In this document: positions 1,689 to 37,198 of the stretch, one piece after another | How positions within the stretch are numbered: the first letter of the stretch is position 1 | Layout of the letters: every line of letters starts with the position of its first letter | Virus record (IMG/VR): IMGVR_UViG_2851966386_000003 | Coordinates: 1-49,389 of that record | Origin: a virus | Taxonomy: Duplodnaviria > Heunggongvirae > Uroviricota > Caudoviricetes | Strand: one strand, 5' to 3' | DNA: 49,389 nucleotides | The notes under the pieces: generated by a model | What the model saw: the letters and a program-made list of their open reading frames with translations, nothing else | Database searches by the model: none | Told to the model about the DNA's origin: nothing | Made by a program: the position numbers and the translations under genes

Positions 1689-2804
1689 TTAGCCCACGTA
1701 TTCCGGTTTCATGTCGTCCAGGGTGATGCGGAACTGGTCATAAAGTTCATCACCGAGGTGGCGTTTCGCGCCGTTGAGAATGCCTTCAGCTTTAGCAAAC
1801 AGTTCGACGGCTTCCCGTTCTCCGGGATTAGGTAGAGAGTTGATCGCGGCCTCAACTTTGTTTCTGGCGTCAACCATGAAATAACGCTGCACGGCTTTAC
1901 CTTTCAGCTCGGTGAAGAGAACAGTGCCCAGCACAGCTTTCTCTTTATCCAGATCCGCCCTGATGGCTTTTGCTGCATCGACCGATTCGGCGCGCTCAAT
2001 GCGGTCACGGAAATCATCTGCCAGGGAATCAATATTGAGAGCTGAATCCTGCGCGCTTGTGGTGATGTCTGTTCCGCTGGTGATCTCTGCCACAGACATT
2101 CTTTGCGCCGGCGTCGGGTTTATTTCTCGCTCGGTCCTTTGTTCAACCTCATCCGGGCTGTAAACACCCAGGATGACTTCCGGGCAATACAGCCGCGCCC
2201 AGTATTTGACGCCCAGATAAGCGATTTGCTGTTTCGGGTTAGAAACCCACAAAGGAGAATTACGTGTGACGACTCCAGAGAGATAAAGTGGCTCCCCCCA
2301 GGTGATTTCCGATTCACCGCGCAGAATCGCGCCGACCTGGACGAATAACCCGATTTCGTCCTCATCTGTCCAGCCTCGTACACGCTCGGTGACATTGTAT
2401 TTCCCGTTTTTGCCGTGCTTTTCCCGGGTGACCTCTTGAGTCCTGGTGCAGCGCTCCCAGTCGCCTCCGTAACGATAGTGAAAGCGGCCATGAATGGCGC
2501 TTGAGCTGGCGATTACCGCATTGACCAATTGGGCTTCATACCCAAGCACACCGTTTACCAGATGCGTTTTTTGCGCTACTGCGTAGGGATTCATGCCCCA
2601 TTGCATTGCCTGCATAACGATCGCCATGCAATCGGCTGGTTTACCCGCGAGGTGTGCAGGTACCGTCACCTGAGAATCTGCCATCAGGTTTGCAAATGCC
2701 GTTAGCTGGCCGAGCGCCTGCACGTTGAAGATGGCGTTACTGGCAGAAATGGTATTTGGAGCCTGTTGCTCAGTGGTAACAATATTGGTGTTTTCCATCG
2801 TCAT
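1689..2804 (-). CDS. recT: RecT/Bet-family single-strand annealing protein
   Basis: 371-aa ORF; central region resembles RecT/Bet SSAPs; immediately downstream of recE-like gene; AAGGGG SD upstream, alternative start at 2798. Confidence 0.8.
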   Translation of the reverse strand: MTMENTNIVTTEQQAPNTISASNAIFNVQALGQLTAFANLMADSQVTVPAHLAGKPADCMAIVMQAMQWGMNPYAVAQKTHLVNGVLGYEAQLVNAVIASSSAIHGRFHYRYGGDWERCTRTQEVTREKHGKNGKYNVTERVRGWTDEDEIGLFVQVGAILRGESEITWGEPLYLSGVVTRNSPLWVSNPKQQIAYLGVKYWARLYCPEVILGVYSPDEVEQRTEREINPTPAQRMSVAEITSGTDITTSAQDSALNIDSLADDFRDRIERAESVDAAKAIRADLDKEKAVLGTVLFTELKGKAVQRYFMVDARNKVEAAINSLPNPGEREAVELFAKAEGILNGAKRHLGDELYDQFRITLDDMKPEYVG

Positions 2805-2810
2805 ATCCCC

Positions 2811-5800
2811 TTATGCCTGTACGCGCAGCGCTTCGAGACGGCGCATATCAAAATCGTTAAGTTCTTCGGTGTAGTCTTCGGTAATCGGCGCCGGCCATTC
2901 GCCAGTGTCAAAACCGTTCGCGATGGCACGCATTGCTTTGCGATATTCCAGCATGCCGAGTTCCAGCAGTTCTTCGGATGCCTCGATGATGGCGATCCAG
3001 TGGTAGTTCTCGTCTTTGTTGACGAATATCCAGAAGAACTGGTCAAGGGCTGCGGTTTCGCAGTACATAGCCGCGCTCAGGTGGTAATCGCGCTCGATGA
3101 TTTCCCGGTGCAATTTGGCGCGCAGGCCTTCCTGCTTGATGTTCCACATGCTGATGGTTTTAAGGTCCGCACCGATGCGCAGGCCGCCCATGTCAATCTC
3201 AAGGTCAGGACGCACACGAACTTCCAGCCCGGTTTCCTCATCAATGCCGAAATAGCTCACCTCGACGGCACGGCTCGGGTGCGTCAACAACTTGCCGGCG
3301 GTCGGGTGGTTCAACAGTGCTTTCTGAATGGCAAGTGCCGTAGCCAGCTGCTGGCGGGTTACCAGCACTTTTCCTTCAGGGTTTTCGCGCCATGCATCCA
3401 GCAACTCATCGGCAAACACGGCATCCGGTTTAACCGATTTCACGGCCTGAATCAGATCCGCCTTAGTACCTGATACTTTCAGCGGCTGCGCCTTCTGTGC
3501 ATCCTGCGCAACCATGTCAGGATTAATAAGTGCCAGCTGTTCCAGTAAGGCATCGCGGCTACCGCTGGTTTTCACCTGGGCGGGCATGGTCGCGTTGTAT
3601 TCCTTGATGCATGCCTTCATAGCGGTGGCAGTTTGCTTCTGTCCGTCTTCAATGCGCTGGAACTCAGCAGGTAAAGACATATAACCTTGGCCGGTTTCTT
3701 CAACTGATGTACCCAAAGGAACCTGGGCGGGCAGGGTCGCGTTGTATTCCTCCAGGAATCTCTTGATGTCATCTGCGCTGAGCAAAACCGGAAGCCCGTT
3801 GTTGTACTCGTCGATAAACGCACGGATCGTCGCAGTCGTGGTGAATGCGCCTTCCGGGATTTCGGGCTCGATGCTGAATTCTTTTTCCAGTTGATCAGGT
3901 TGCAGCGCCAGTGCATGCACTAGATTTCCCATATCCAGAACAGGGGAGCGTACCTTCTGGATGGTCTTGGATACGTGGCGCGCCTCGAAATACATCAGCG
4001 ATACCCGGGCATCTTTAACCATCGTGGAGCTGATGCCGTTAGCGGCGTGGTAGACCTCATTTGGCACGCCTTCATATCGACCAGGCTCGAAATACTCCGG
4101 CCATGCTGGCGCTGCATGTTCAGCCTCTTCCTCTACATCGCTATGAGCACTCTCGGAAACCTGGCTTTTCAGCACTTCGGCGGTAAGATCCGGGCAGCGT
4201 TCAGCCAGTATTTTGCTCATGTTCACGGCAGTTGTTTGCGCAGGAGGCTCATCAGCGCCTTTGCCTGCTGATACCGCATTATCATTTTCGTCTTCGACCG
4301 GCTGAGCCGTTTCCATCTGCACATCGCTGGTGGTTTCCCCGGAATTAGCTGGATGTAATTTTTCTTCTGCAGCGCGCTGGCGCGCCTGGTCCACGATAGA
4401 AAGTGCTGGTGCTGGTGCTGGTGCTGGTGCTGGTGCTGGCTGGCTATCCATCAGACCATCAATCGAAAAAACACCATTGCCCATGTTTGAAACTTCAGGC
4501 TGTTTGGGCTTGGTCAGGTCTTCGGTTATCCACTTCGGATCCGTGGGGTCACTGATACCTTCGACATATTCACCACGTTCGGCGGCCAGAACCTGATTAG
4601 CGTCAGGACGTTTCTTTTGAGCTTCTTTCACCAGTTCGGTGCCAATTACCTGAAAGTCAGTTGGGATAGTTTCCAGGTCAGGTACACCTTCATCTCCATC
4701 GATAGCCTTTTTCACAGCGTCCAGAGTGACGGCGGCAGATGAAACATGACCAGCTTTCTCAAGCGTCTCAGCAGAAGGGGCGTCATGCTTATGCTCGGTC
4801 AGGTTCGCATTGATATAGGTCTGCAGACTTACCGGGAAATGATGAATATCGCTGGTGGCGCCACGAATAAGGGCAAAAATGGCGGCGCGGGAATAATCCA
4901 GGATGCCTGCAACCTTGCGCAGCGCTGCAGACCATTCCTTGAACGGACTTTCTTTCTTCTGGACGATCTCTTTGGCCCGGCGGTGAATTGATGCCGGGAA
5001 ATTGTAGATATCGAAATCCATTGGCATTGTGGCCAGGGCTATTTCTACATCGAGCGTATCAAGGGTATGGGTGTAGTCAGGGTTGCGATCGGTTTTATTA
5101 CTGCCGCCAGCATTCGTAACTGCATCGGTTTTCATAACTGAAGAAATGTAGTTACCGGCAGCCCATTCCCTGGTGAGAATGCCGCGGTCGATCGCGTTCG
5201 TGGCGAACCACAACTTTGCAAACTGAATACGTTTGCCGAGCTCATGCCGTTTCCCTTCCGGGAAGACTTTTTTATTGGCGCTGGTGAATTTCCAGAGCGC
5301 CGGCATATCGTATTTTTTGATTTCATGGACATTCTCGGCGGCCAGAATCAGGTCCTGAACGGCTGCGTTATCAGTGTCCATTTCAAGAACTGACAGCTCC
5401 TGCCGGTGAGGCATGCTGATATGATAAACGTGGCGTTCTTCGGCCATATACTGCGCCAGCAGCTGGGTGCGAAAGGGGAGTTCTGCCACGTTAAAAAGCG
5501 CGCTTGAATCGTTCTGGTATTCATCGCTACCGAAAGTTTCCACGGTCTCACCTTGTGCCGCGTCGACAGTGGTATAGGCATCAACCGGCTCGCCAGTAAC
5601 GGCCCCAGAGGTTACTCCGGCATCATCGTGATGAACATCAGCAGGCGCCTGTCCTGGCTTCAAAGTCCAGGTGCGGCCATCGTCGCCGAGCTGGTAGCGT
5701 TCGCACCATGAGTAATCGAGAACACCCTCCGCCGGCAGGTCGTTGAATACCGGGAAATCGGTGCGAATAGGTTTTTGATAGTCTTTGCCGCGGCCTGTTT

Positions 5801-5930
5801 CGATCCCAGCGTCTTCCAGATCGACGTCGAGCTGCAGTAGGGCGCGAGCTTCTGATTTATTAGTGCGCCAGATTACGGCATCAGCTTTACCCGATTTTTG
5901 AGTCGCTTTTATCAGATAAAAATATTCCAT
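2811..5930 (-). CDS. recE: RecE-like exodeoxyribonuclease VIII
   Basis: ORF 2811..5996; N-terminal region aligns by eye with E. coli RecE (FPVFNDLPAEGVLDYSWCERYQL...WTLKPGQAP); start moved to ATG 5930 preceded by AGAGG SD. Confidence 0.8.
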   Translation of the reverse strand: MEYFYLIKATQKSGKADAVIWRTNKSEARALLQLDVDLEDAGIETGRGKDYQKPIRTDFPVFNDLPAEGVLDYSWCERYQLGDDGRTWTLKPGQAPADVHHDDAGVTSGAVTGEPVDAYTTVDAAQGETVETFGSDEYQNDSSALFNVAELPFRTQLLAQYMAEERHVYHISMPHRQELSVLEMDTDNAAVQDLILAAENVHEIKKYDMPALWKFTSANKKVFPEGKRHELGKRIQFAKLWFATNAIDRGILTREWAAGNYISSVMKTDAVTNAGGSNKTDRNPDYTHTLDTLDVEIALATMPMDFDIYNFPASIHRRAKEIVQKKESPFKEWSAALRKVAGILDYSRAAIFALIRGATSDIHHFPVSLQTYINANLTEHKHDAPSAETLEKAGHVSSAAVTLDAVKKAIDGDEGVPDLETIPTDFQVIGTELVKEAQKKRPDANQVLAAERGEYVEGISDPTDPKWITEDLTKPKQPEVSNMGNGVFSIDGLMDSQPAPAPAPAPAPALSIVDQARQRAAEEKLHPANSGETTSDVQMETAQPVEDENDNAVSAGKGADEPPAQTTAVNMSKILAERCPDLTAEVLKSQVSESAHSDVEEEAEHAAPAWPEYFEPGRYEGVPNEVYHAANGISSTMVKDARVSLMYFEARHVSKTIQKVRSPVLDMGNLVHALALQPDQLEKEFSIEPEIPEGAFTTTATIRAFIDEYNNGLPVLLSADDIKRFLEEYNATLPAQVPLGTSVEETGQGYMSLPAEFQRIEDGQKQTATAMKACIKEYNATMPAQVKTSGSRDALLEQLALINPDMVAQDAQKAQPLKVSGTKADLIQAVKSVKPDAVFADELLDAWRENPEGKVLVTRQQLATALAIQKALLNHPTAGKLLTHPSRAVEVSYFGIDEETGLEVRVRPDLEIDMGGLRIGADLKTISMWNIKQEGLRAKLHREIIERDYHLSAAMYCETAALDQFFWIFVNKDENYHWIAIIEASEELLELGMLEYRKAMRAIANGFDTGEWPAPITEDYTEELNDFDMRRLEALRVQA
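4405..4440. repeat. (GCTGGT)x6 tandem hexanucleotide repeat inside recE, encoding (PA)n linker on minus strand
   Basis: gctggtgctggtgctggtgctggtgctggtgctggc read directly; minus-strand translation PAPAPAPAPAPA. Confidence 0.9.
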
Positions 5931-6067
5931 GTGATAGCCTCTATTTTGGATGTAAAATCCCCAGGGCCATTGGTAGCGCCCATTCAGGGTGGTCATTGGT
6001 TTTGGTAATTTCCGGTGTAACTTTGGTCGGTGGCACCGGACGTACAGCCCGCTTCGGCGGGTTTACG

Positions 6068-8490: not shown

Positions 8491-9408
8491 ATGTCAAATA
8501 CCGCTGAAGTTATCAATTTTCCAATCAAAACCGAACTAACGGGAGGTCGCATGGCCGACCTGTCCAACGGCTATACCAGAATCGCCAATGAGATACAGAA
8601 ACTCAAACCGAGGCTGCGCATGTCCGGGCGCGAGTGGCAGTGTCTTGAGGCTGTTATCTGGCTTACCTACGGATGGAACAAAAAACAGGATCGGGTGACG
8701 AATACCGTGATTTCTGAGTTAACCGGCTTGAGTGATTCTCATGTTTCAGATGCGATAAAGCTACTCGCGGCACGGGGAATTATTTTTAGTCACAAGCATG
8801 GTGTGATGAAAACTGTCGGTATAAATACTGAGCTATCCGCCTGGATTTTGGACAAACCGAAAACGGGAAAACTCTTCCCGAAAACGGGAATTTCCTTCCC
8901 GGAATCGGGAAAAACCTTCCCGGAAACGGTAGACACCCAAGACTATAACAAAAACAATATTAAAAGATCTTCGTCTCGGAATTCTGAAGAATCCCGAAAC
9001 AAGGAAACATTGAAGTTTCTCTCTCGTCATCCAGAAGCGGTCGATGGGATTTATACCCCTGCAGGAAAATCCTGGGGAACAGCTGACGACCTCAAAGCCG
9101 CGCGATGGATTTTCGATAAAACCCTCACCGTGAATGCCTCCCTCTCAGAGCCGAACTGGGTTGAATGGGCAAATACCATCCGTCTGATGCGCATGCAGGA
9201 CAAACGCAGCCATTACGAAATTTGCGAATTGTTCAAGTGGGCCAACGAAGACAGCTTCTGGCAGAACAACATTCTGAGCCCCACCAGCCTGCGGAAACAG
9301 TGGGATCAGCTCACGACTAAACGCCTGCGCAACCATGGTCCATCCAGAAGCGCATCAGGCGCCAGTGCGCTGGACAACACAGACTGGATCAACGGGGTAC
9401 TCGAATGA
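8491..9408 (+). CDS. O: Replication initiator protein O (lambda O-like)
   Basis: N-terminus parallels lambda O (NTAEVINF...LTYGWNK...DRVT); iteron array embedded mid-gene. Confidence 0.85.
   Translation: MSNTAEVINFPIKTELTGGRMADLSNGYTRIANEIQKLKPRLRMSGREWQCLEAVIWLTYGWNKKQDRVTNTVISELTGLSDSHVSDAIKLLAARGIIFSHKHGVMKTVGINTELSAWILDKPKTGKLFPKTGISFPESGKTFPETVDTQDYNKNNIKRSSSRNSEESRNKETLKFLSRHPEAVDGIYTPAGKSWGTADDLKAARWIFDKTLTVNASLSEPNWVEWANTIRLMRMQDKRSHYEICELFKWANEDSFWQNNILSPTSLRKQWDQLTTKRLRNHGPSRSASGASALDNTDWINGVLE
8857..8975. repeat. Iteron array plus AT-rich tract inside O gene (putative phage origin)
   Basis: Repeated cccgaaaacgggaa-like units at 8857-8929 followed by AT-rich stretch caagactataacaaaaacaatattaaaag; same layout as lambda ori inside O. 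Confidence 0.6.
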
Positions 9409-10148
9409 AATCTATCGCAGAAAGCATGCACAACTTCGACCGTGAAAACTTCCAGCGAGTGGCTGCCGGGCTTCCGGAAATGCAGGACGAGCAGGCATTA
9501 AAGCGCCAGGCGGCCAAGACTGCGGAGATCTTCAACGAGCTGTTCCGCCAGCTGCTTGCCGTATTCCCGGTGCTGGCCAACAAATCTGTGGAAGACCTCA
9601 ACGAGATGCGTCGCCAGTGGTTGTTGGCGTTCAAAGAGAACGGGATCACCACAGTTGAGCAGGTTAACGCAGGGATGCGGGTTGCGCGCAAACAGGAAAA
9701 ACCATTCATGCCATCACCGGGACAGTTCGTCGCCTGGTGTCGTTCTGAGGAGGCGGTAACTGTAGGCCTGCCAGATGCGAGTGAGCTGGTTGAAATGGTT
9801 TACCAGTATTGCCGGACTCGCGGCCAGTATCCAGACGCTGAGTCGTACCCATGGCCTGAGCACAAAATCGAACCGTTAACGCTGAAACACAAAGCCTGCT
9901 ACTGGATGGTTACTGGCTTGTACGCAGACATGCGCGCAAACGGCCTCAGCGACACTGAGTTGCGACGTAAGGCGCAGGATGAGCTGCTGCGTATGGTTCG
10001 TCGCTTGAATGCCGGGGAAGTGATTCCCGAGCCGGTTAAGCAGATCCCAAAGCTTGGCGGACGTCCGCTTAGTAACGAGCAGGGCTTAAACAGAATCGCT
10101 GAAATCCGCGCGAAATTCGGTTTAGGCAGAGGGCGGAAACATGGCTAG
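9405..10148 (+). CDS. P: Replication protein P (helicase loader, lambda P-like)
   Basis: Long stretches match lambda P by eye (ITTVEQVNAGMRVAR...PSPGQFVAWCR...YPDAESYPW...GEVIPEPVKQ). Confidence 0.85.
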   Translation: MKSIAESMHNFDRENFQRVAAGLPEMQDEQALKRQAAKTAEIFNELFRQLLAVFPVLANKSVEDLNEMRRQWLLAFKENGITTVEQVNAGMRVARKQEKPFMPSPGQFVAWCRSEEAVTVGLPDASELVEMVYQYCRTRGQYPDAESYPWPEHKIEPLTLKHKACYWMVTGLYADMRANGLSDTELRRKAQDELLRMVRRLNAGEVIPEPVKQIPKLGGRPLSNEQGLNRIAEIRAKFGLGRGRKHG

Positions 10149-11454: not shown

Positions 11455-11683
11455 ACAGAACGAAAAGGCTATTTCACAGATTGCGGAATATATCCCGCGC
11501 GCCTGCCGGGGTATGCAGCTGCAGGAAGCGAAAGCGCGTCTGGAGAAAAAAATCGCGCTCTATACCGATGACGGCTGTGATGTTGCCGTTCTTAACGCGG
11601 CGTTTGCATCAGCTCTTAACAGTCATACGCGGGAGTCTTTTTTTTCGTGCATTTATGCGCAGCTGCGCGAGGGGGCCAGATGA
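11447..11683 (+). CDS. Hypothetical phage protein
   Basis: 78-aa ORF, start overlaps previous stop. Confidence 0.45.
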   Translation: MFKQNEKAISQIAEYIPRACRGMQLQEAKARLEKKIALYTDDGCDVAVLNAAFASALNSHTRESFFSCIYAQLREGAR

Positions 11684-12347
11684 CAATCACATAACATGCA
11701 CTAAACGAGCTCATTCAGTCGCTTGAGTCGGCTGGTTAGCTGTCGCAATGGGCTGATATGCAGTTCTTGCTGTGGGACGCCCAGCGCCGGGCTGGTATCA
11801 CTGATGATCAAGATTACCCAAGCGATGATCGATGAGCTCGCGGTAAACAAGCAGCACTCATTGCCGGAGCCGAAAGATGGAGAGCCAATACTGCATTTGA
11901 AATAATAGCTACCTTTACTTTTAAAATTACACATTTAATGGTTGTATCTTTTTGCAGCAAGTAGTTAAATCAGTTTATCCCCGCGAGAGATTCGAAAAGG
12001 AGGGCCCAATTTTGTCCGAGTTTTTGTATTCCCCCGCATGCCGCTGCAGAGCACTACATCTGAGCGTCTGACCAGGGGATGAACCAAGATTGGATAGTGA
12101 GAAGAAAGTGGCGCGTAAGGCTGAGCTGAGCGTGCCGGCTGACCCGGATGGGGAGCAGCTTTCGCCGATGTCGTAGTGGACGTCGGTCAATGCATGAAAA
12201 GCTGAGAGGTCAGACAACCAACTTGCCAGAGGAGCATCTCCTGCGTGATGCTTGAGAGCTAACCGAAAGCAATGCGAAAAAGCATAAACTCGGCCTGCCA
12301 ATCGTCCTTATTATCCGCCTGATAGCAGTTTGTGACTGGGAGTGGAT

Positions 12348-12629
12348 ATGTTAGTAGATTATCTTTTGATTGGACTTAAGCGTCATGGAGAGATAAAACA
12401 AGTCAAGCATAAGGCTGGAGATATGCTTGAGTCGTCACTGGCTTTTTATCCTGCAAATAATTACAACCTTGAGCAGCCAAATTGCGTTTATGATGTTAAG
12501 GTAATTCACCACCGAGGGCATCGTTATGCTATTGCTATTGCATGCGATGTAAATGCTTCAGAAATTAATTCCTTGGTTGAATCCACAAAAATGAACCCCA
12601 TCCCCGATGGTGTAATCGGGGAAATCTGA
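12348..12629 (+). CDS. Hypothetical protein, AT-rich cargo gene
   Basis: ORF 12342..12629; ATG 12348 preceded by GGGAGTGG; composition visibly more AT-rich than flanking phage genes. Confidence 0.45.
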   Translation: MLVDYLLIGLKRHGEIKQVKHKAGDMLESSLAFYPANNYNLEQPNCVYDVKVIHHRGHRYAIAIACDVNASEINSLVESTKMNPIPDGVIGEI

Positions 12630-12806
12630 TGTTGGAATCAAAGGAGTTTGTCATAGATTGATGGAATGAATGTGGACGTACTTACATCATCTAGACCTGA
12701 TATAAGAGATGGTTTAGGCTGTGATAAACTCTAATGCGAACAAACGATCTAGTTACCCTGCGTTACATCACTATGGCCTGCCTGATCGAAAAAATAAGGA
12801 GGGGGT

Positions 12807-13295
12807 GTGTCAAATTTTCTTTCTTTTATTGGGGTGCTTGTATCAATAGCTAGCTGTTATTATGCATACAAAGCATTCACATCTGCTAAAGAAATATCCT
12901 TTCCGGAAAAAAAGCCTCGTGAAAATATGTGTGTTATTAGATTTTTCTCGAAAGAAGCTAAGGAATTTGAAGGTTTTATAAACAAAAATAAACATAAAAA
13001 AGTGTATTTGAATATTGAGTTTGAAGGAAGTGAATTTGAAATCAATGAGGATGGTGATTCCCGCTGGTTGGTTGTCTGGACTGATACCTTTCAGGAAGTC
13101 CCTAAAGGTGAAAAGCTTGACACTTCAAACTGTAACGGGTATCAATTGACTATCATTCCTCATGAGGATGGGTTTGGTAATTTTCACTGGTTTCGTGGAG
13201 CTTATCAACTATCGGGGCATTTCTATATTGATGGATATAGTGGGCCTTATCAGGGTCTAATGAGTGCTGTTATCTCTGCTGCCAAAACCATATAA
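12807..13295 (+). CDS. Membrane-anchored hypothetical protein, AT-rich cargo gene
   Basis: 162-aa ORF, GTG start 5 nt after AGGAGG; N-terminal TM helix (FLSFIGVLVSIASCYYAY). Confidence 0.5.
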   Translation: MSNFLSFIGVLVSIASCYYAYKAFTSAKEISFPEKKPRENMCVIRFFSKEAKEFEGFINKNKHKKVYLNIEFEGSEFEINEDGDSRWLVVWTDTFQEVPKGEKLDTSNCNGYQLTIIPHEDGFGNFHWFRGAYQLSGHFYIDGYSGPYQGLMSAVISAAKTI

Positions 13296-13380
13296 GCAGT
13301 TTTGATTTTTTTTCATCATTCATAATCAGTACGTCAGCCTGAACAACTAACATTTTTTATCCAGCGCCAAGTGAGGACAC

Positions 13381-13608
13381 ATGGCGCACAAAGTAAAAAA
13401 ACACTCGGATTATAGATTTGTATGCAATAACCCTTCTGATCGTGATGATTGTTCAGGTTGTTGTAGTGAATGCAGTATTTTCTGCGTGGGGCTTGGGCTT
13501 CTACGGCTATCTGATGAAGTCCTGACGATTTTCGCGGGATGCTCAATGCCTCATATCTGTGGTCTTGTTTACTGCGTTATCCAATCTGTTTTCCTGGCAA
13601 AAAAATAA
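13381..13608 (+). CDS. Small Cys-rich hydrophobic protein
   Basis: 75-aa ORF with GAGGA SD; followed by hairpin terminator. Confidence 0.3.
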   Translation: MAHKVKKHSDYRFVCNNPSDRDDCSGCCSECSIFCVGLGLLRLSDEVLTIFAGCSMPHICGLVYCVIQSVFLAKK

Positions 13609-13637
13609 AAGCCTTCTCTGCGGAGAGGGCTTTTTTA
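13607..13637 (+). terminator. Rho-independent terminator
   Basis: gccttctc tgcg gagagggc stem-loop followed by tttttt. Confidence 0.6.
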
Positions 13638-13696
13638 TAGTTGATTAAAATGAAAATCTACGCGGATCGGGGTTCTCACGGCGGTACATAATTGAC

Positions 13697-13834
13697 ATGT
13701 ATTTCTGCAGTGTGAAGTGCGCTAAAGACAAGCAGGTTGCGCGTTGTGGTAATGCGGTTCCTCCGCCTTTTGCTGAGGCGCTGGTGAGTGCTAATTTTCC
13801 GGAGATGTGCCTGAAAAAAGACATTGCAGCATGA
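13697..13834 (+). CDS. Small Cys-containing ORF (45 aa) between two terminators
   Basis: Manual translation MYFCSVKCAKDKQVARCGNAVPPPFAEALVSANFPEMCLKKDIAA; stop abuts terminator; no clear SD. Confidence 0.25.
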   Translation: MYFCSVKCAKDKQVARCGNAVPPPFAEALVSANFPEMCLKKDIAA

Positions 13835-13835
13835 T

Positions 13836-13862
13836 AAAACCCGCTTCGGCGGGTTTTTTATT
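13836..13862 (+). terminator. Rho-independent terminator
   Basis: aaacccgc ttcg gcgggttt followed by T-run. Confidence 0.65.
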
Positions 13863-13943
13863 ATGGAAAAACATCAATCTAAACATAAGCATGGTGTTGG
13901 CAAAAAGTGCTGCAGAGGGGTTGAACATTTCATGCAACCGGTA

Positions 13944-13963
13944 TACTGTTTATTTATACAGTA
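13944..13963. promoter_or_regulatory. LexA box (SOS operator) upstream of dinI homologue
   Basis: TACTGTTTATTTATACAGTA = CTGT-N8-ACAG palindrome, 20 bp upstream of dinI-like ATG. Confidence 0.65.
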
Positions 13964-13982
13964 TCTGTGTGAGGTGCTAACC

Positions 13983-14216
13983 ATGAAAGTTGAAGTCACA
14001 ATTGATAAACATAAAAAACTCCCTGATGGTGCCATACCTGCGCTTGAGCAAGAATTGTTGCGCCGCTTGTCCCAGTCTTATGATGACTGCAAATTAACCA
14101 TTCGATGCACAAGCAACGATGGCCTTAGCGTTTTGGGCGGCGCTGATGGCGATAAAAAGCGCGTTGAGCAAATTCTGCAAGAGACATGGGAAAGCGCAGA
14201 CGACTGGTTTTATTAG
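13983..14216 (+). CDS. dinI: DinI-family protein
   Basis: 77-aa product matches E. coli DinI along its length (MKVEVTIDK...LPDGAIPALEQELLRR...EQILQETWESADDWF); GAGGTG SD; real start is internal Met of ORF 13824..14216. Confidence 0.8.
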   Translation: MKVEVTIDKHKKLPDGAIPALEQELLRRLSQSYDDCKLTIRCTSNDGLSVLGGADGDKKRVEQILQETWESADDWFY

Positions 14217-14291
14217 TTTAATTGTGATGGTGGCGGCTCTTATCCCAGAGCATCGCATTCGCGTTTCCCTTGATGCTGCTACCCGTTTTTT

Positions 14292-14546: not shown

Positions 14547-14629
14547 CTCATAACAGCTAGCTACATCATACTTGTAGTGCTGGTCTGAACAACCAGCCAC
14601 CTGACAGTAATGCGCCACCGGAGAACGTG

Positions 14630-15226
14630 ATGGCGCAGCTTCACTTAATAAAACAATCTCAAGGTATCCTGATCCCCGCGACGCCGGAGACCAGTGATTT
14701 TCTGCAATCAAAATGCAAGCTCGGATCCGTTCTGGAAGCCGATTATAAGCTTGTCCGCAATCCGGCGTTTCACCGCCGTTACTTTGCTTTACTCAATCTC
14801 GGCTTTGAATATTGGGAACCTACCGGCGGGGCGATTTCGTCTAACGAGCGCAGGCTTATCACAGGTTACGCCAAATACCTTGCTGCATATGGCGGGAGTG
14901 AATCGGCGTTGCTTGATGCCGCCGGGCAATATCTCGACCGGATAGCTGAGAAGCGATCCGGCTATATCAGTATTTGCAAATCCTTCGATGCTTACCGGGC
15001 GTGGGTCATCGTTGAAGCCGGCCACTATGACGCCATACAGCTACCGGACGGCACGCTGAAAAAACACCCTCGCAGCATTTCTTTTGCAAGCATGGACGAA
15101 TGCGAGTTCCAAGAACTGTACAAAGCATCGCTGGATGTTCTCTGGCGGTGGATCCTCTCTCGTTCATTCAACAGCCTGCAGGAAGCTGAGAACGCCGCCA
15201 ACCAGCTTTTAAGCTTCGCGGGGTGA
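14630..15226 (+). CDS. Nin-region phage protein of unknown function
   Basis: ORF 14627..15226; ATG 14630 after GGAGAA SD; nin-region position. Confidence 0.5.
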   Translation: MAQLHLIKQSQGILIPATPETSDFLQSKCKLGSVLEADYKLVRNPAFHRRYFALLNLGFEYWEPTGGAISSNERRLITGYAKYLAAYGGSESALLDAAGQYLDRIAEKRSGYISICKSFDAYRAWVIVEAGHYDAIQLPDGTLKKHPRSISFASMDECEFQELYKASLDVLWRWILSRSFNSLQEAENAANQLLSFAG

Positions 15227-17468: not shown

Positions 17469-17548
17469 GCCTGTGATTAGTCGCTCTTCGATAGCAATGT
17501 ATGCAGAGTGTATTGACGCTAGCTATGTTTACAGCATAACGTATTGAT

Positions 17549-17657
17549 GTGGTGAATCCCCCTATGCGGAGGGGCGACCAGTCAGTTACAGAAACCTGTA
17601 AATGCAGCGCGGCCATGCCGACTGGGGCATGCTCACCGGGAGGCACCCGGCACCACA
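17549..17657 (+). repeat. Copy 1 of ~108-nt structured repeat element (candidate ncRNA or recombination site)
   Basis: gtggtgaatccccctatgcggaggggcgaccagtc...gactggggca...ccgggaggcacccggcaccaca; shares conserved 5' and 3' arms with copy at 20245..20351. Confidence 0.6.
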
Positions 17658-17816
17658 CTGCCACATAACATATTTAAGATTTATGGAAGGTTTACTTCTG
17701 CGGTTGCCCTTCTATGTTTATAGAACGTAACGGCAAAAGTGAATGCTTCCTGGTAAATCGGTAGCTCGGACTATTAGGAGTGGCTTCGTTTCGTTACTAC
17801 CTAGAATGCCTACTTT

Positions 17817-19991: not shown

Positions 19992-20244
19992 GTGAGTTAA
20001 CCCTCCTAGGGACCATGGATATTATGGTTCGCATGAGGGGTAGTGTGGGATTTAAGTGAGAAAATTCCTAACTGGAATTTTTTCTTAATTTGAAACCTGA
20101 TATGAAACTTTATTGTTGGTTTTGTAATGATTCAATATGAAATGATTAATTATTGTCTGCCAGGATATACAGTTTTCCGAAAGAGGTGTTTTTACTGGTT
20201 ACATCGGATTGACTATGCACTTATCGCATAGCTAATGTAGATGC

Positions 20245-20351
20245 GTGGTGAATCCCCCTGTGCGGTGGGGCGACCAGCCAGGTTTTCTCTTTGAGCACAC
20301 ACGCAGGTCTGTTGGCTGGGGCAGACTTACCGGGAGGCACCCGGCACCACA
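20245..20351 (+). repeat. Copy 2 of ~108-nt structured repeat element
   Basis: gtggtgaatccccctgtgcggtggggcgaccagcc...ggctggggca...ccgggaggcacccggcaccaca; possible hairpin terminator at 20371-20397. Confidence 0.6.
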
Positions 20352-20544
20352 ACATACTGCATAACCCCATAAAGGCCTTCCATTACGGTAGGCCTTTTCT
20401 CTTCTGGTTGTATCTAATACTGTGGGCAGGTCAGCTGGCTTATGCAGGACAGATTATTTTTTCTTATTGAATGCCGCTTCTGGTGTGCTTATATTCTACC
20501 TAAAAATGGGTAGGTGTGTTGTGATTAGAAAATGCTATGCAAGA

Positions 20545-20904
20545 ATGTCTGACCCAGCATCAAATGACAAGCTGACACTGGAAATGCTTGTAACTGACGG
20601 TGGGCGTAAGATTTTTATCTGGGATTTTGATAAAGGGGTGGCAATTTTCTCTGAGGGTATAACAGGTAAGCAGTCTAAATACATAGTGCAAGGTGAAAAG
20701 CATGCAGGGCATATCAATCTTATCAGAGATAATACGATTGAGCGCACTATTTATGGGGTTAAGGAGCTCACCTGTGGAAATGGTGATTCCGGTAAATCCT
20801 CTCCTGTGTTTTGCTCATTGTGCGAGGGGCAGATACTCATAATCGAATGCCAAAAGGCTTTTATAAGAAAACCATTAAGGCTTGATGAACTCACCTTTGA
20901 ATAG
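20545..20904 (+). CDS. Hypothetical protein, AT-rich moron (start uncertain)
   Basis: ORF 20422..20904; weak SD; AT-rich. Confidence 0.3.
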   Translation: MSDPASNDKLTLEMLVTDGGRKIFIWDFDKGVAIFSEGITGKQSKYIVQGEKHAGHINLIRDNTIERTIYGVKELTCGNGDSGKSSPVFCSLCEGQILIIECQKAFIRKPLRLDELTFE

Positions 20905-21500
20905 AACTACTTACGATACATTCCTCATATGTTCGAAGGATATAACATCTCTCAGGTATCCTGCTTCTGGATGCCGGGAATGTGTACCGCTGGTGGGCTG
21001 GATTCTTGGAGCCTTTGCCCAGCAGTTTCAGGTGATAAAAAACCCCGTGGAGTAAATCCGACAAATTGACGGGGCGCTGCAGAGGCAGCCAATGTCGGAG
21101 TTTAGTCAGATTTCGAGGTGTTTTTCTACTGGTTTGAGAAAAAATGGATGGTCTGACACTACAGGAATTGGCTCATCCCTGAGCTCACGGGTAGAACAGT
21201 AGACTTTGTCATGGCAGAGCAAAGTCATAAGTAAGTGTAGAATGTGTTTCTGATTTAACAAGCGTAGCGAGTGTATGCTTCATGGATTGTACGTCTGTAA
21301 CTTTCATAATATTTCTGCCATTTCAAAATTAAGATACTAGGTAAAACCTTAGGGAATTTAGAGGGTAAGAGAAGCTGTGAACAAAAAAATCTCCTCGCGA
21401 AGCAATGTTTTTCACTTTAACGAAATATATTGTTTGCAATGTGGGTTTTTTAGTTCATCATGTATGCTACATTGAGTTCTTATAAAATGAGCTGCTAATT

Positions 21501-21707
21501 ATGACTGAGTGCAAACTTCCACAACTTCCAGAGTATTATCGATATGGTACTGAACAAATTAACAAGTTGCCTGGGAGTGGGGATGTTTTTCCTCCTGCGG
21601 GTAGTATAATAAAGTCAGTAAGTTTAAATGAAGGTGTATTTGTTTGTGTTCCGGTGCAGCGTTATATACACGGGTTGAATATTTGGGTTGTAGTTGAATC
21701 TTCTTGA
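21501..21707 (+). CDS. Hypothetical small protein (weak)
   Basis: 68-aa ORF in AT-rich region; weak SD. Confidence 0.25.
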   Translation: MTECKLPQLPEYYRYGTEQINKLPGSGDVFPPAGSIIKSVSLNEGVFVCVPVQRYIHGLNIWVVVESS

Positions 21708-21829
21708 TAATGATTTTTGTTTGGTAAAAGTGATTTTTCGTTGGTTTGGTGGTTTCTATTTATTATAAATTCGCTGTTGGAATTTAAAATTAGCATCATT
21801 GCAATGCTTTCAAACACCGTAGAAGGATT

Positions 21830-22024
21830 ATGATGCTAGTGCAAAATAATATTTATAATAATTCAGAGTCATATGCTATTCTTTTGTTTAGTATGTGGCC
21901 TGTCCTTATTGTACTTCTTGTCGTGATATCTTGCGCCTTTTACGGTGTATTGATGCATAAAACTGCAATTTGTTGTTTTCTGTCAGCTATGTTCCTTGGT
22001 GTCGCAGGCTGGTTTTATGGATGA
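21830..22024 (+). CDS. Small membrane protein
   Basis: 64-aa ORF with two hydrophobic helices; AAGGA SD. Confidence 0.3.
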   Translation: MMLVQNNIYNNSESYAILLFSMWPVLIVLLVVISCAFYGVLMHKTAICCFLSAMFLGVAGWFYG

Positions 22025-22178
22025 TCACCATTAGCTCTAATATGAGTCACTTTTTAGTATAAAGTCAGGGTGTCATTACTTTACCTGGCTTGTAGCGTTG
22101 GTTCCCTAAAGTTTGACGATAAAAGGCCCTGTTAATACAGGGCCTTTCTGTATGTATTATTTATCAAAGAGGTAAGAC

Positions 22179-22424
22179 ATGTCAGAGATCACCGCATCTG
22201 AGCAAATCCGCCTGGATATTATCAAGAAAGTGAATTACGACACTGCAGCGGCGAAGTTAGCCATTGACTGGGTAGGCGACAGCTATCTGAAGTCTGAGCT
22301 ATTCGCTGACTCTTTCGATCGTGTTTTCACGGAAAGTGAGATTGTCTCGAAGACCCGTAAGGCAATCCAGGAAGCGACCGAAGCGCTGGCGCTGTTTGAT
22401 ACTGCCGCTGAGCAGGTCAGCTAA
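22179..22424 (+). CDS. Hypothetical protein
   Basis: 81-aa ORF with AAGAGG SD ~6 nt upstream. Confidence 0.45.
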   Translation: MSEITASEQIRLDIIKKVNYDTAAAKLAIDWVGDSYLKSELFADSFDRVFTESEIVSKTRKAIQEATEALALFDTAAEQVS

Positions 22425-22749
22425 GGCATTACAGCAGGCGTTCATAGAGTGCCTGTGATAATGACCATCAGACAAATCGTCTGAGCTGACAGTTCAATCA
22501 ATCACCAATTACCAGTTACACGGGGTAACTGACATCATTGTCTGTTTATCCCGGTGAATTTTGAAATACTTACTACTCTCATAACGTCTCTGCCTGCCAA
22601 CACCAGAACGGCAGAGGTCAGTTAGCCGTATAGATGAACCTCTCCCGGGTGGCTCCTGAGAGATTCTTTATACGCTAGCTGGTAGTAACTAAAGGCCGCA
22701 TATTTTTGCGGCCTTTTTCATCATTTGTAAAATGAAAGCCCTCAGGCGA

Positions 22750-22878
22750 TTAACGATGCTCAGGACCATGGAAGTGATCTCCACCATGTCCGCCTCCATG
22801 GGGACCAGGGGGAAGGATACATCCTGAAAGTGACAGCGCACCACAGATCACAAAAACAGCAAGCATAATTCTTTTCAT
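22750..22878 (-). CDS. Small lipoprotein with His/Gly-rich mature region (42 aa), below ORF-track cutoff
   Basis: Manual translation MKRIMLAVFVICGALSLSGCILPPGPHGGGHGGDHFHGPEHR; lipobox LSGC; weak SD. Confidence 0.4.
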   Translation of the reverse strand: MKRIMLAVFVICGALSLSGCILPPGPHGGGHGGDHFHGPEHR

Positions 22879-22982
22879 AATAACTACTGAACTAAAGAGC
22901 CTTAATTCCAAAACATAAAAGTGAATATTTTATGGAGAATCAGTAATTCCTTTTTCTCCCTCACGTTAAAGAGGAATAATCC

Positions 22983-34235: not shown

Positions 34236-37115
34236 ATGACAGAACAAACCTCCCGCCTGGCCATTGTGATTGATAGCTCCGGGGCAGAAAAGCAGGCTGA
34301 CAATCTCGCAACTGCACTGGTAAAAATGACGCAGGCAGGCGAACGTGCTGTTACCAGTGCAGGGAAAGTGACAAAAGCTACTGATGAAGAAAAACAGTCT
34401 CTTTCTGAACTCTTAGATCGAATTGACCCGGTAAACGCAGCTCTGAATAAACTGGATAAACAACAGCAAGATCTTGCGAAATTCAAATCAAAGGGGATGG
34501 TAGATATCGATACATTCGATCTTTATTCAAAGAAAATCGAGGAAACACGAAACAGGCTAACTGGATTTCGCGACGACCTTGGCAAAACCGGACAATCTGC
34601 CGCACAGACTGCCTTTGCCATGCGCATGATCCCAGCGCAGATGACTGACATTATTGTCGGCTTATCTACGGGGCAGTCGCCGTTTATGGTGCTTATGCAG
34701 CAGGGCGGGCAGTTGAAAGATATGTTCGGCGGTATTGGCCCCGCGATTAAAGGTGTTGGCGGGTATGTGCTGGGGTTGATTAATCCTGTCACTCTGGCTG
34801 CCGCGGCTGTCGGTGTTCTTGGGCTGGCCTATTACAAAGGCTCTCAGGAGCAAGGCGAGTTCTATAAGTCATTGACCCTTAACGGTAATCTGGTTGGTAA
34901 AACCACCGGGCAACTAGCAGATATGGCCGCTCGGGTTTCAGTAGTTGCCAACTCAACTACTGGCGTGACCGCAGCCACACTTAACCAGATAGTTTCATCC
35001 GGGAAAGTGGCTGCAGAGTCATTGGAACGAGTAACAACTGCCGTGGTTGAAATCAGTGAAGCCACAGGCATCGCCACTGAAAAGCTGGTGGGTGATTTCA
35101 ACGACATTGCTGCTGACCCGGTTGCGGCCATTACAAAACTTAACGACCAGTACCACTTTCTGACACTGGCAACCTACAACCAGATTAAAGCACTGCAGGA
35201 TGAAGGTAATCAGCAGGATGCTGCACGGGTGGCTACTGATGCTTACGCCAATGCCATGCAGCAGCGTGCGAACGATATTCATCAGAATTTGGGGATTCTT
35301 GAACGTGCTTGGGACTCGCTTGCTAAAACGGCTAAAGGAGCATGGGATGCCATGCTTGATATAGGTCGCGAGCAAACCGGCACCGAGCGGATCTCTCAAA
35401 TTCGTAAGGAATTAGATTGGATAGATAAGGCTGCAGGCGGGAAGCTATTTTTTGGTGGAAGAAAGGCTGAGCTCGAAGATGAGCTAAATAATCTGCAATC
35501 TCAAATCACAACAGAAGGCGTTTTAACTGAAATAATCAGTAGTCATGACAAAGCTGAACAGCAAAGAATTAAAACGCAGCAGGAAGCAGATCGCGTTAAC
35601 CAGCAATATCTGAGCAATGCGGATAAGCGCAATAAAGCCATTAAGCAGCAAAGCGAGTTCCTGAAGGCAGGCGCAATTACTGCAGAGCAATATTCAAAAA
35701 ATGTTTCTCGTATTAACGAGATGTACAAAGATCCGAAACCACCCAAGACGCCAAAGAGTAAAGCATATACCGAGGACGCAGCAACCCGGCTGCTTGATCA
35801 GATAAACCAGCAGACTGCTGCTATGCAGTCCCAGCTGGATGCCAGTGACAAGCTTAACAGCTCGACACAGGCGCGGATTAAGTTCGAACAGCAAATTGCT
35901 GACCTCAAGTCTAAAACGCAGCTCACCGCTGACCAGAAGTCGATCCTTTCCCGTTCAGATGAAATCCTCCAGGCATATAAGCAGCAGGAGGCACTGCAAA
36001 ATTCCGTAAAAACCCTGGACGATTACCGCAAGATGCAGGAACAGGTAAAGACGAAAGATAAGCGGACCAACGATCTGCTTAAAACCCGTCTTGAACTGCT
36101 GGAGAAGGCCAAAGCAACCGGGCAACTTAAACCCGGTGAATATGCAAAAACGCGGGCAGATATTTATCAAAACACCGATATGCAACTGCCCTCGACGGTT
36201 CGTAATGTTGTAGGAAACCTGACACCCACAGGAGGGCGACTCTCTGGAACTTTTGAGGGGATGCAGGGGCAAATCAACGAATATGATCAGGCTCAGCAAG
36301 AGCTCCAGCGCTGGCTGGCAGCTCAGGAGGAAGCTTATGCGAAGGCCGGTGAAATAACTGCCGAGGGTGAGGCCAGAATGACCTCTATTCGTCAACGTGC
36401 GGCGGATGCAAATCAGGTCATAGAGGCTCAGAAAAACACCATCATATCTGCGGCCACGCAGTCCTTGTTTGATAGCACCGCCGAAATCATGCGAACGGGG
36501 TTTGGTGAGCAATCGGCAATCTACAAGGTCGCTTTTGCTGCGAGCAAGGCATTCGCTATCGCGGACTCGATGGTGAAAATCCAGCAGGCTATAGCAAGCG
36601 GTGCAGTAAGCGCGCCTTATCCGGCCAACATCATCGCTATGGCCTCAATCGCTGCGCAGACTGCCAGTATCGTCTCAAATATCCAGGCTGTTTCAGGAGT
36701 TGGCTTCGCCTCCGGCGGTTACACCGGCCCCGGTGGTAAGTATCAGCCCGCGGGTATTGTTCACAAAGGTGAGTACGTCTTCGACCAGGCTTCAACGAAC
36801 CGGATCGGCGTGTCTCAGCTTGAGGCACTTCGAAATGGCCAACCGCTTGATGCAACTCTGGGGCGTACAGGGTTTGGTACTGGTGTTCAGAACGTTAACA
36901 GCGATAACCGTAGGCAAACAACTGTACACGCGCCGATTAATCAGGAGTTTCATCTCCAGGGTATTACTCCGGAGCAGTTGAGCGCTACACTCAATCAGAA
37001 TAATCGACTGCTTTCCAGGCAGTTAAAAGGTGAACTCACAAAGGAGGTTACCATGCCACAAGGGGCTTTTGGTAACGCTCTAAAAGGAAACTATACACGA
37101 CACGGTCCTAGGTAA
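34236..37115 (+). CDS. Tail tape measure protein
   Basis: 959-aa coiled-coil-rich product in canonical position after G/GT. Confidence 0.85.
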   Translation: MTEQTSRLAIVIDSSGAEKQADNLATALVKMTQAGERAVTSAGKVTKATDEEKQSLSELLDRIDPVNAALNKLDKQQQDLAKFKSKGMVDIDTFDLYSKKIEETRNRLTGFRDDLGKTGQSAAQTAFAMRMIPAQMTDIIVGLSTGQSPFMVLMQQGGQLKDMFGGIGPAIKGVGGYVLGLINPVTLAAAAVGVLGLAYYKGSQEQGEFYKSLTLNGNLVGKTTGQLADMAARVSVVANSTTGVTAATLNQIVSSGKVAAESLERVTTAVVEISEATGIATEKLVGDFNDIAADPVAAITKLNDQYHFLTLATYNQIKALQDEGNQQDAARVATDAYANAMQQRANDIHQNLGILERAWDSLAKTAKGAWDAMLDIGREQTGTERISQIRKELDWIDKAAGGKLFFGGRKAELEDELNNLQSQITTEGVLTEIISSHDKAEQQRIKTQQEADRVNQQYLSNADKRNKAIKQQSEFLKAGAITAEQYSKNVSRINEMYKDPKPPKTPKSKAYTEDAATRLLDQINQQTAAMQSQLDASDKLNSSTQARIKFEQQIADLKSKTQLTADQKSILSRSDEILQAYKQQEALQNSVKTLDDYRKMQEQVKTKDKRTNDLLKTRLELLEKAKATGQLKPGEYAKTRADIYQNTDMQLPSTVRNVVGNLTPTGGRLSGTFEGMQGQINEYDQAQQELQRWLAAQEEAYAKAGEITAEGEARMTSIRQRAADANQVIEAQKNTIISAATQSLFDSTAEIMRTGFGEQSAIYKVAFAASKAFAIADSMVKIQQAIASGAVSAPYPANIIAMASIAAQTASIVSNIQAVSGVGFASGGYTGPGGKYQPAGIVHKGEYVFDQASTNRIGVSQLEALRNGQPLDATLGRTGFGTGVQNVNSDNRRQTTVHAPINQEFHLQGITPEQLSATLNQNNRLLSRQLKGELTKEVTMPQGAFGNALKGNYTRHGPR

Positions 37116-37198
37116 GCTAAACTGCATTAGCTGAGACTTGATTAGGTAGGTAAGTCTAACAATCTGAGTAGGTGCAAGAAAACACAAGGATCTTATTA

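Follow-up and report, generated by a model that had tools for sequence, protein, structure and literature searches.

Known accessory genes (morons) of lambdoid phages include the HK97 gp15 moron and stx downstream of Q, and membrane-bound superinfection-exclusion proteins have been described in P22 (SieA and SieB), T4 (Imm) and HK97 (gp15). Effectors of the CBASS (cyclic oligonucleotide-based anti-phage signalling system), Pycsar and Thoeris types are modular and combine a transmembrane (TM), TIR or HNH killing domain with a ligand sensor (SAVED, cNMP-binding, STING or SLOG). Enterobacterial prophages also encode small RNAs (sRNAs), such as IsrK and DicF, and ToxI is the RNA of a type III toxin-antitoxin system. 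Here we describe a region of a lambdoid prophage of the Klebsiella type (IMG/VR record IMGVR_UViG_2851966386_000003, the full 49,389 nucleotides (nt) of which were analysed and are called the window below) that contains two open reading frames (ORFs), ORF1 (positions 12348-12629, plus strand) and ORF2 (12807-13295, plus strand), and, upstream of them, a putative structured RNA (11977-12307, plus strand). A first-pass annotation had described the two ORFs as an AT-rich cargo cassette, horizontally acquired as a moron and plausibly serving superinfection exclusion or anti-phage defence. The comparisons reported below make it very probable that the RNA, ORF1 and ORF2 are instead three separately mobile modules, placed between the replication module and dinI/ninB.

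Like lambdoid morons and other accessory genes of the nin region, ORF1 and ORF2 are small and low in GC, lie between conserved modules, are variably present, share the orientation of the operon and are followed by terminators. They differ from these in that ORF2 has no detectable promoter of its own, the putative promoter of the region belonging to the sRNA gene upstream of ORF1, and in that neither gene has sequence similarity to characterised moron products (Pfam, PADLOC and PHROGs). With SieA/SieB, Imm and gp15, ORF2 shares its small size, its prophage origin, a predicted inner-membrane anchor and a position outside the core modules, but homology to these proteins was not detectable (Pfam and PHROGs); moreover, they are mostly membrane-embedded, whereas ORF2 would combine a single anchor with a conserved globular domain of 110 amino acids (aa) that is also found on soluble TIR and HNH proteins. 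In having a C-terminal domain that is joined to interchangeable N-terminal TM, TIR or HNH parts, the ORF2 family recalls the CBASS, Pycsar and Thoeris effectors. It departs from them in that no cyclase or other signal producer adjoins it in the window or in the relatives' loci examined, that its domain falls outside the known sensor families (Pfam, PADLOC and PDB), and that lipoprotein, presumably periplasmic, versions of it exist.

ORF1 and ORF2 are genuine genes of low GC content

The coordinates and lengths given for the two ORFs in the first-pass annotation, and the GTG start of ORF2, were confirmed. ORF1 is 93 aa long counted from its ATG and would have 95 aa from an in-frame GTG at 12342, and ORF2, with a GTG start, encodes 162 aa, comprising a predicted N-terminal anchor and a C-terminal domain (residues ~49-156); the hydrophobic N-terminus noted earlier was likewise found. 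The Shine-Dalgarno sequence of ORF2 (AAGGAGG, 12796-12802) ends 4 nt ahead of the GTG. The two genes are co-oriented and separated by 177 nt, with no terminator between them. Their location was also as described, with a lambda-P-like gene upstream and dinI (13983-14216) downstream, and so was their base composition: the GC content of 12348-13295 is 0.381, compared with 0.505 for the whole window and 0.546 for the replication module, which places it in the lowest 1.6% of all 948-bp windows.

Homologs of ORF2 formed 14 clusters (59-96% identity) and those of ORF1 eight (Klebsiella and Raoultella, 81-98% identity), and pairwise ratios of nonsynonymous to synonymous substitution rates (dN/dS) were 0.10-0.20 for ORF2 and 0.135 for ORF1; both are genuine genes under purifying selection. 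A GTG or TTG start is kept in all four close ORF2 lineages examined. In phage RothC (PP934563.1; our locus L001, 3019-3507), the GenBank annotation overlooks an intact 162-aa homolog of ORF2 that starts with TTG and shows three short spurious ORFs (39, 34 and 32 aa) in other frames instead; the GTG and TTG starts are probably the reason for the omission.

Neither product resembles a phage core protein in Pfam or PHROGs, as had been stated before. Pfam gave no match to ORF1 or ORF2, and the sole family match of ORF1 was a weak one to PHROG 23640 (1.8e-8), a family without assigned function, while ORF2 had no match in PHROGs. A check against defence families, proposed in the first-pass annotation, was negative, with no family of PADLOC-DB 2.0.0 matching ORF1, ORF2 or their neighbours at E<=1. 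Sequence and profile searches of PDB were also without a match for either protein (best E = 0.13 for the profile of the ORF2 domain). AlphaFold2 models built from shallow family alignments had predicted local distance difference test (pLDDT) scores of 39 (ORF2) and 55 and were too poor for use.

Mosaic inheritance of the region

In nucleotide searches, Klebsiella prophages matched the region in pieces and never as a single block. Positions 11740-12304 matched phage Kp4856-1, 12789-13388 matched phages RothC and RothD, and 13332-14278 matched phage ST846-OXA48phi9.2 (93.6% identity from 13332 onward), which has the same downstream DNA without ORF1 and ORF2. The region is therefore a mosaic of pieces that were inherited separately.

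The distribution of the two genes contradicted the idea of a two-gene cassette. ORF2 was found without ORF1 in nine out of ten IMG/VR phage loci (the single locus with ORF2, ORF1 and the RNA being the window's own lineage), as well as in RothC and in prophages of K. oxytoca and E. coli. It directly follows a holE-theta-like gene in RothC, the K. oxytoca prophages and one further locus (L143), and a Lar-like gene in the E. coli prophage. A Cronobacter homolog (43% identity), again without ORF1, lies between Q and the genes for holin and lysozyme. Conversely, K. spallanzanii and Raoultella have ORF1 but not ORF2; in Raoultella, dinI and a SIR2_2 gene come after ORF1. The two genes were seen together in one K. 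pneumoniae prophage lineage (loci L011-L014, L049, L072 and L142).

In all ten IMG/VR loci the ORF2 homolog was located in the nin region, as it is in the Klebsiella and E. coli prophages, with varying upstream neighbours, and had a GC content of 0.36-0.42 compared with 0.45-0.56 in its flanks. ORF2 was always oriented with the early operon, and the homology to RothC begins 18 nt upstream of the start codon. The gene is rare: 2 of 50,697 phage records contain it, and a DNA search of 5,426 complete E. coli genomes did not find it. These results support the view that ORF1 and ORF2 are horizontally mobile accessory genes (morons) at an insertion hot spot in the nin region, and the earlier proposal of a horizontally acquired moron thus holds, both genes being AT-rich wherever found, rare and patchily distributed. 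As to the promoter and terminator that a moron may bring along, terminators are present on the 3' side (13607-13634 and 13836-13857), and no promoter-like site was seen directly upstream of ORF2.

A putative structured RNA in the stretch upstream of ORF1

Approximately 650 bp ahead of ORF1 had been described as lacking convincing ORFs. Aligning the stretch upstream of ORF1 across loci resolved this gap (11684-12347). No ORF was conserved between lineages and substitutions lacked periodicity (28/30/34), in agreement with the description, but the stretch was not empty, containing a pseudogene remnant, a promoter-like site and a probable structured RNA. The remnant is the frameshifted 3' end of a dATP/dGTP pyrophosphohydrolase gene (11700-11905, plus strand), of which phage Kp4856-1 has an intact copy of 169 aa (L020, 2156-2665; PF04447, 1.5e-39) whose 3' end aligns with it. 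It is followed by a putative sigma-70 promoter of the RNA gene (11942-11970, plus strand), which was read by eye as TTGTAT and TTAAAT with a 17-nt spacer. This site lies in a spacer of 27% GC (0.273), and the Klebsiella, Raoultella and E. coli lineages all have a -35/-10 pair with the same 17-nt spacing in this position (TTGATT/TTAAAT in Raoultella, TTGAAA/TATTAA in E. coli). A scan with the promoter consensus missed the site because just three of the six -35 positions match.

The sequence from 11977 to 12307 consists of long invariant blocks that alternate with variable helices, in at least seven sequence lineages. Scanning IMG/VR with two different invariant blocks recovered it in 47 and 64 prophage contigs, and it was present in 158 of the 5,426 complete E. 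coli genomes (~3%), in single copy and never annotated, while an exact 20-mer was absent from the GTDB species-representative genomes and from plasmids. RNAalifold, applied to 14 distinct sequences, predicted a structure of 90 base pairs in 17 helices, with 98.2% of cells paired. Compensatory double changes were found in 17 of the 90 pairs, as opposed to 2-5 when the partners were slid by 1-3 columns, and the observed covariation score was higher than that of any of 500 column shuffles; a smaller sequence set agreed. Conserved G-U pairs assigned the RNA to the plus strand. Since the minimum free energy z-score from single-sequence folding was modest (-1.6), the case rests on the covariation among about seven related lineages, and on that basis we consider it quite probable that 11977-12307 encodes a genuine structured non-coding RNA of ~330 nt. 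It is unannotated and belongs to no Rfam family (no match in Rfam 15 at 11977-12307, either at gathering thresholds or at E<=5). A coding interpretation of 11684-12347, based on a 19-codon ORF with a TTG start behind a conserved AAGGAGG, was rejected, as periodicity is absent and the changes preserve base pairs. Literature searches on the RNA sequence and on sRNAs of the nin region found nothing, and a general search on morons of Klebsiella prophages returned nothing specific.

The RNA resembles IsrK, DicF and STnc100 in being prophage-borne and apparently non-coding, in having a promoter-like site and in ending, in most lineages, at an intrinsic terminator. From typical Hfq-type sRNAs it differs in its far larger size and number of helices and in its lack of an Rfam match. 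As with ToxI, a small gene often follows, but the RNA has no tandem repeats and stands alone in one locus (L124). STnc100 itself (RF02076) occurs twice in the window, on the plus strand at 17518-17721 and 20217-20405 (71.9 and 81.5 bits, respectively, against a gathering threshold of 47), one copy being near the Q/late-promoter region and the other after the lysis genes.

Variable cargo genes follow the RNA

Alignment across lineages identified a decayed intrinsic terminator of the RNA gene, CCGCCTGATAGCAGTTTGT, at 12315-12333 (plus strand). Clean terminators were found at the end of the RNA in other lineages (AACCGCCTACCGGCGGTTTTTTTT in Kp4856-1, with similar ones in L123, L124 and L130), and in every ORF1-linked copy, including that of the window, the 3' arm and the T-tract of the terminator are degenerate. 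All close ORF1 homologs examined are positioned 32-48 nt after the RNA. The degenerate terminator in these copies suggests that transcription from the RNA promoter probably reads through into ORF1. Scans of the spacer between ORF1 and ORF2 detected neither a promoter-like site nor a terminator, the only terminators being those at 13607-13634 and 13836-13857; ORF2 would therefore probably belong to the same read-through unit, ending at 13607-13634.

ORF1 is one of four unrelated small genes that, depending on lineage, lie within 17-57 nt of the RNA, the others encoding a 118-aa E. coli protein (often truncated), a 183-aa protein and a 178-aa protein with two predicted TM helices. In L124 the RNA and its clean terminator are followed directly by ninB, which argues that the RNA is an autonomous gene. 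In addition, the ORF1 homolog of phage ST974-OXA48phi18.2, which is distantly related (34% identity), has no RNA upstream and is one of the ordinary genes of the nin region, so the linkage of RNA and ORF1 is a lineage-specific arrangement and not an obligate pair.

Alternative cargo loci were found in Kp4856-1 (L020, 3122-3673) and in IMG/VR (L129, L134 and L140). By eye, the 183-aa protein contains an RHNLLH (Rx4H, HEPN-like) motif; it has no match in Pfam or PADLOC. The helices of the 178-aa protein are N- and C-terminal, respectively, and tblastn found no match to this protein among the 50,697 phage records.

ORF2 carries a mobile domain that also occurs on TIR and HNH proteins

The N-terminus of ORF2 is hydrophobic (Kyte-Doolittle values of 1.84-2.05 for residues 4-20), with a helix at residues 4-24 (2-25 in the AlphaFold2 model). 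Six lysine or arginine residues follow the helix and none precede it, which by the positive-inside rule suggests an anchor with its N-terminus out and its C-terminus in. ORF2 would accordingly be a protein with one TM helix, N-out/C-in, and a cytoplasmic domain of ~110 aa.

A search of 1.84 billion representatives with a profile hidden Markov model built from the ORF2 family retrieved 72 clusters. The part shared by these proteins corresponds to ORF2 residues ~49-156, with the consensus ...RGxYxLxGYFxVxGxxGPxQGLM.... Residues of ORF2 that are conserved include F57, G111, G137, F139, G146, Q149 and G150, as well as an RG motif at 130-131. Most family members begin, like ORF2, with a single TM helix followed by positive charges, and others have a lipoprotein-type signal. 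A few carry other N-terminal domains. P0069 has two TIR domains in front of the shared domain (TIR_2, 3e-42), and P0090 a TIR domain of the CBASS/Pycsar type (PF10137, 1.8e-30; PADLOC TIR effector, 4.5e-46). P0087, P0093 and P0094 have a common fused architecture (~370-390 aa), the N-terminus of P0094 matching the PADLOC HNH endonuclease effector of CBASS (~1e-17); P0087 gave a similar HNH match in an alignment-wide PADLOC scan and has an HNH-like motif by eye. The N-terminal domain of P0038, P0077 and P0083 (motif GGPDGGRD) has no assigned family and no PDB match; its resemblance by eye to Mrr or other restriction endonucleases was not pursued as a claim, the PADLOC E-value being just 0.049.

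Across 62 members the shared domain was matched by neither Pfam nor PADLOC, PDB gave no match either, and in the PADLOC scan of these members only the N-terminal TIR/HNH parts of three were recognised. The TIR- and HNH-fused relatives come from distant taxa and have 20-30% identity to ORF2. ORF2 itself shows the architecture of a TM effector of the CBASS/Pycsar type, a predicted N-terminal TM segment plus a soluble domain, and versions with TIR or HNH in place of the anchor exist. As judged from these profile comparisons, the C-terminal ~110 aa of ORF2 constitute a mobile, previously undescribed domain.

The fused forms have neighbours of the kind seen in defence islands or mobile elements. 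P0090 adjoins a PDC-S31 candidate gene, P0069 a gene for patatin and one for a TPR-S protein, and P0087 a PD-(D/E)XK nuclease gene and ParM-like genes; upstream of P0077 is a DISARM-like MZB/DUF1998 gene with PLDc_2 and Mrr_cat, and a homolog in Pseudomonas neuropathica is flanked by Mrr_cat and AAA_13. Other surroundings differ: the acidobacterial lipoprotein forms adjoin housekeeping genes (hydrogenase, a tricorn-like protease and oxidoreductases). Twelve GTDB loci, located with a hand-made degenerate DNA pattern, were confirmed, and no neighbour family recurred among them or in the other contexts examined, which fits a stand-alone gene. Neither a CD-NTase nor a pyrimidine cyclase gene adjoins ORF1 and ORF2 (whose neighbours are P, DUF977, a ParB-like gene, dinI and ninB) or the homologs examined. 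The lack of a dedicated signal-producing partner argues against a CBASS-like sensor of a local nucleotide messenger. A second-messenger sensor acting with an adjacent cyclase was considered and rejected, given the absence of a recurring neighbour and the existence of lipoprotein forms.

A locus from Pseudomonas chlororaphis (CP045221.1; L073, 6313-10852) has P0038 353 bp downstream of a four-gene cluster, encoding an AAA_18 protein, a protein with AAA_18 and an adenylosuccinate-synthetase-like domain, a DUF7002 protein and a NUDIX protein (the last with a weak PADLOC match to PDC-S07, 1.4e-8). This cluster could be a nucleotide-modifying conflict operon.

Possible functions of ORF2

The occurrence of the same domain on TIR and HNH killing modules or on membrane anchors can be read as that of a recognition or regulatory module of conflict systems, and the domain behaves as a self-sufficient module used in such systems, though not only there. 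In the explanation that we favour, ORF2 would be a stand-alone protein of low abundance (owing to its GTG or TTG start), tethered to the inner membrane and encoded by a moron without a promoter of its own. Its cytoplasmic domain would bind a phage- or infection-derived cue at the inner membrane and oligomerise, and the output would come from the membrane anchor, the sole candidate effector, either as membrane perturbation (abortive infection) or as a block to the entry of superinfecting DNA (exclusion). The fusions to TIR and HNH effectors in defence-island-like contexts of distant relatives lend indirect support to a defence role, and the superinfection-exclusion or anti-phage role suggested in the first-pass annotation is plausible from these family relationships. 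Taken as a whole, that is, stacked modules with ORF2 as a membrane-tethered conflict protein, we hold this explanation to be possible but somewhat short of an even chance, and a defence or exclusion function of ORF2 as such is proposed tentatively. Still more doubtful is the most far-reaching version, in which the shared domain would be a new recognition module of immune effectors, ORF2 the founding member of a new single-gene exclusion or abortive-infection system and the RNA a new family of large prophage RNAs that drive variable cargo.

Several observations weigh against a role in immunity. No defence, exclusion or toxin family matched ORF1 or ORF2 (PADLOC at E<=1, with Pfam, PHROGs and PDB uninformative). 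The 72 clusters of the domain family consist for the most part of proteins with no more than a TM or lipoprotein anchor added to the domain, and effector domains are attached in a minority (about 9 of 74 clusters). In the lipoprotein forms the domain would lie outside the cytoplasm, and some of these forms adjoin housekeeping genes; the domain is therefore not confined to immunity, and it is unlikely to be a cytoplasmic sensor of a second messenger. Topology and co-transcription are deduced solely from sequence, and ORF2, lacking its own promoter and lying in the early-right operon, may be expressed mainly during lytic growth.

The last point leads to the main rival of the defence reading, namely that ORF2 is an accessory protein of the lytic cycle, expressed from the pR or pR' operon, that benefits the phage through host physiology, replication anchoring or lysis timing and has no role in immunity, ORF1 likewise being an ordinary accessory protein of the nin region. 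ORF2 brings along just its Shine-Dalgarno sequence and coding sequence (judging from the extent of the RothC homology) and no promoter, it is invariably co-oriented with the early operon, the Cronobacter homolog sits next to lysis genes, many family members are plain anchored proteins with housekeeping neighbours, and the distant ORF1 homolog is an ordinary nin-region gene. Against this, ORF2 is found rarely and patchily in phages that are otherwise alike, an unusual distribution for a lytic-growth function; TIR and HNH effectors carry its domain in defence-island contexts; and the conserved weak starts suggest a dose-sensitive, possibly toxic product. With these points on its two sides, a purely lytic accessory function appears rather unlikely to us, though well worth weighing. 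Lytic expression would also suit an anti-defence decoy, which would sequester at the membrane either the ligand of host TIR/HNH effectors or the effectors themselves. That phages encode sponges for immune signals is well established (Tad1/Tad2 and Acb2). In favour of a decoy, the C-terminal module of TIR and HNH proteins is the one found in ORF2, the phage versions have no enzymatic effector domain, and the gene lies in an early operon. Known sponges are soluble, however, and the membrane anchor of ORF2 is left without an explanation; the fused relatives are distant (20-30% identity), none having been found in Enterobacteriaceae in these searches, and no conserved signal-producing partner adjoins them. 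We regard a decoy as improbable.

That ORF1 and ORF2, with or without the RNA, form one unit (a toxin-antitoxin pair or a two-component defence cassette) has in its favour that the genes are adjacent and co-oriented without an intervening terminator and co-occur in one K. pneumoniae lineage, and that the succession of RNA, decayed terminator and genes superficially recalls type III toxin-antitoxin loci. Each gene was nevertheless found without the other in several lineages, they are 177 nt apart, and the RNA lacks tandem repeats and stands alone before ninB in L124. The distribution of ORF1 and ORF2 across lineages largely refutes this possibility, which must be considered extremely improbable. 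A type III system of the ToxIN kind in particular was rejected, since 11600-13700 contains no tandem or direct repeats beyond 12-18-mers expected by chance and the RNA is free of cargo in L124.

Flanking genes and other features of the prophage

Upstream of the region, the window encodes a lambda-P-like replication protein (9405-10148; PF06992, 3.7e-60), and a DUF977 gene, a ParB-HTH gene and two small PHROG families are also located on this side. Downstream of ORF2 is a cysteine-rich ORF of 75 aa (13381-13608, plus strand), which is common to other Klebsiella phages and is annotated as "hypothetical protein" in ST846-OXA48phi9.2; it had no Pfam match at E<=1 and no match in PHROGs or PADLOC. 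This ORF is closed by the first of the two intrinsic terminators detected by the terminator scan (13607-13634, plus strand; a 12-bp stem and a T run), the second of which is at 13836-13857 (plus strand). A LexA box, TACTGTTTATTTATACAGTA, read from the sequence as a perfect CTGT-N8-ACAG palindrome at 13943-13962, precedes dinI (13983-14216; Pfam DinI, 4.5e-26) by 21 nt. Two terminators and a LexA box thus stand between the ORF1/ORF2 region and dinI, and the LexA box together with the preceding terminator (13836-13857) indicates that the prophage dinI is an SOS-controlled, insulated unit. One small PHROG gene separates dinI from ninB/DUF1367 (14627-15226).

Elsewhere in the window, a second AT-rich island of ~2 kb (~20900-22950) lies between the lysis module and the terminase genes, and its GC content of ~0.36 is the minimum of the window. 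It contains no ORF of at least 100 aa and only small ORFs, among them a TM-rich one of 64 aa (21830-22024), one of 81 aa (22179-22424) and a lipoprotein-like one of 53 aa (22750-22911, minus strand). Directly after the tape-measure gene (34236-37115) is an AT-rich 120-aa ORF (37172-37534, plus strand) that by eye looks rich in hydrophobic segments. This slot is the position of the superinfection-exclusion moron gp15 of HK97, and by position the 120-aa ORF is arguably a better exclusion candidate than the ORF1/ORF2 region. In the early-left part (1689-5996, minus strand), a large ORF of 1061 aa with a segment resembling RecE (exodeoxyribonuclease VIII; PDB 3h4r, 9e-5) is followed by an ORF of 371 aa, and together these presumably constitute a recombination module.

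Implications for prophage accessory regions

What sets this region apart from ordinary hypothetical phage genes is the combination of an undescribed, effector-associated domain and an unannotated, probably structured RNA. The RNA, of ~330 nt and missing from Rfam and from every annotation inspected, although it shows strong covariation and occurs in many prophages of Klebsiella and Raoultella, illustrates that prophage DNA without ORFs can hide functional elements. Should ORF2 protect lysogens, the defence repertoire of prophages would gain a very small system made of a single gene, whose product is tethered to the membrane, and the C-terminal part of ORF2 would represent a new domain linking TM, TIR and HNH effectors that could be used for genome mining.

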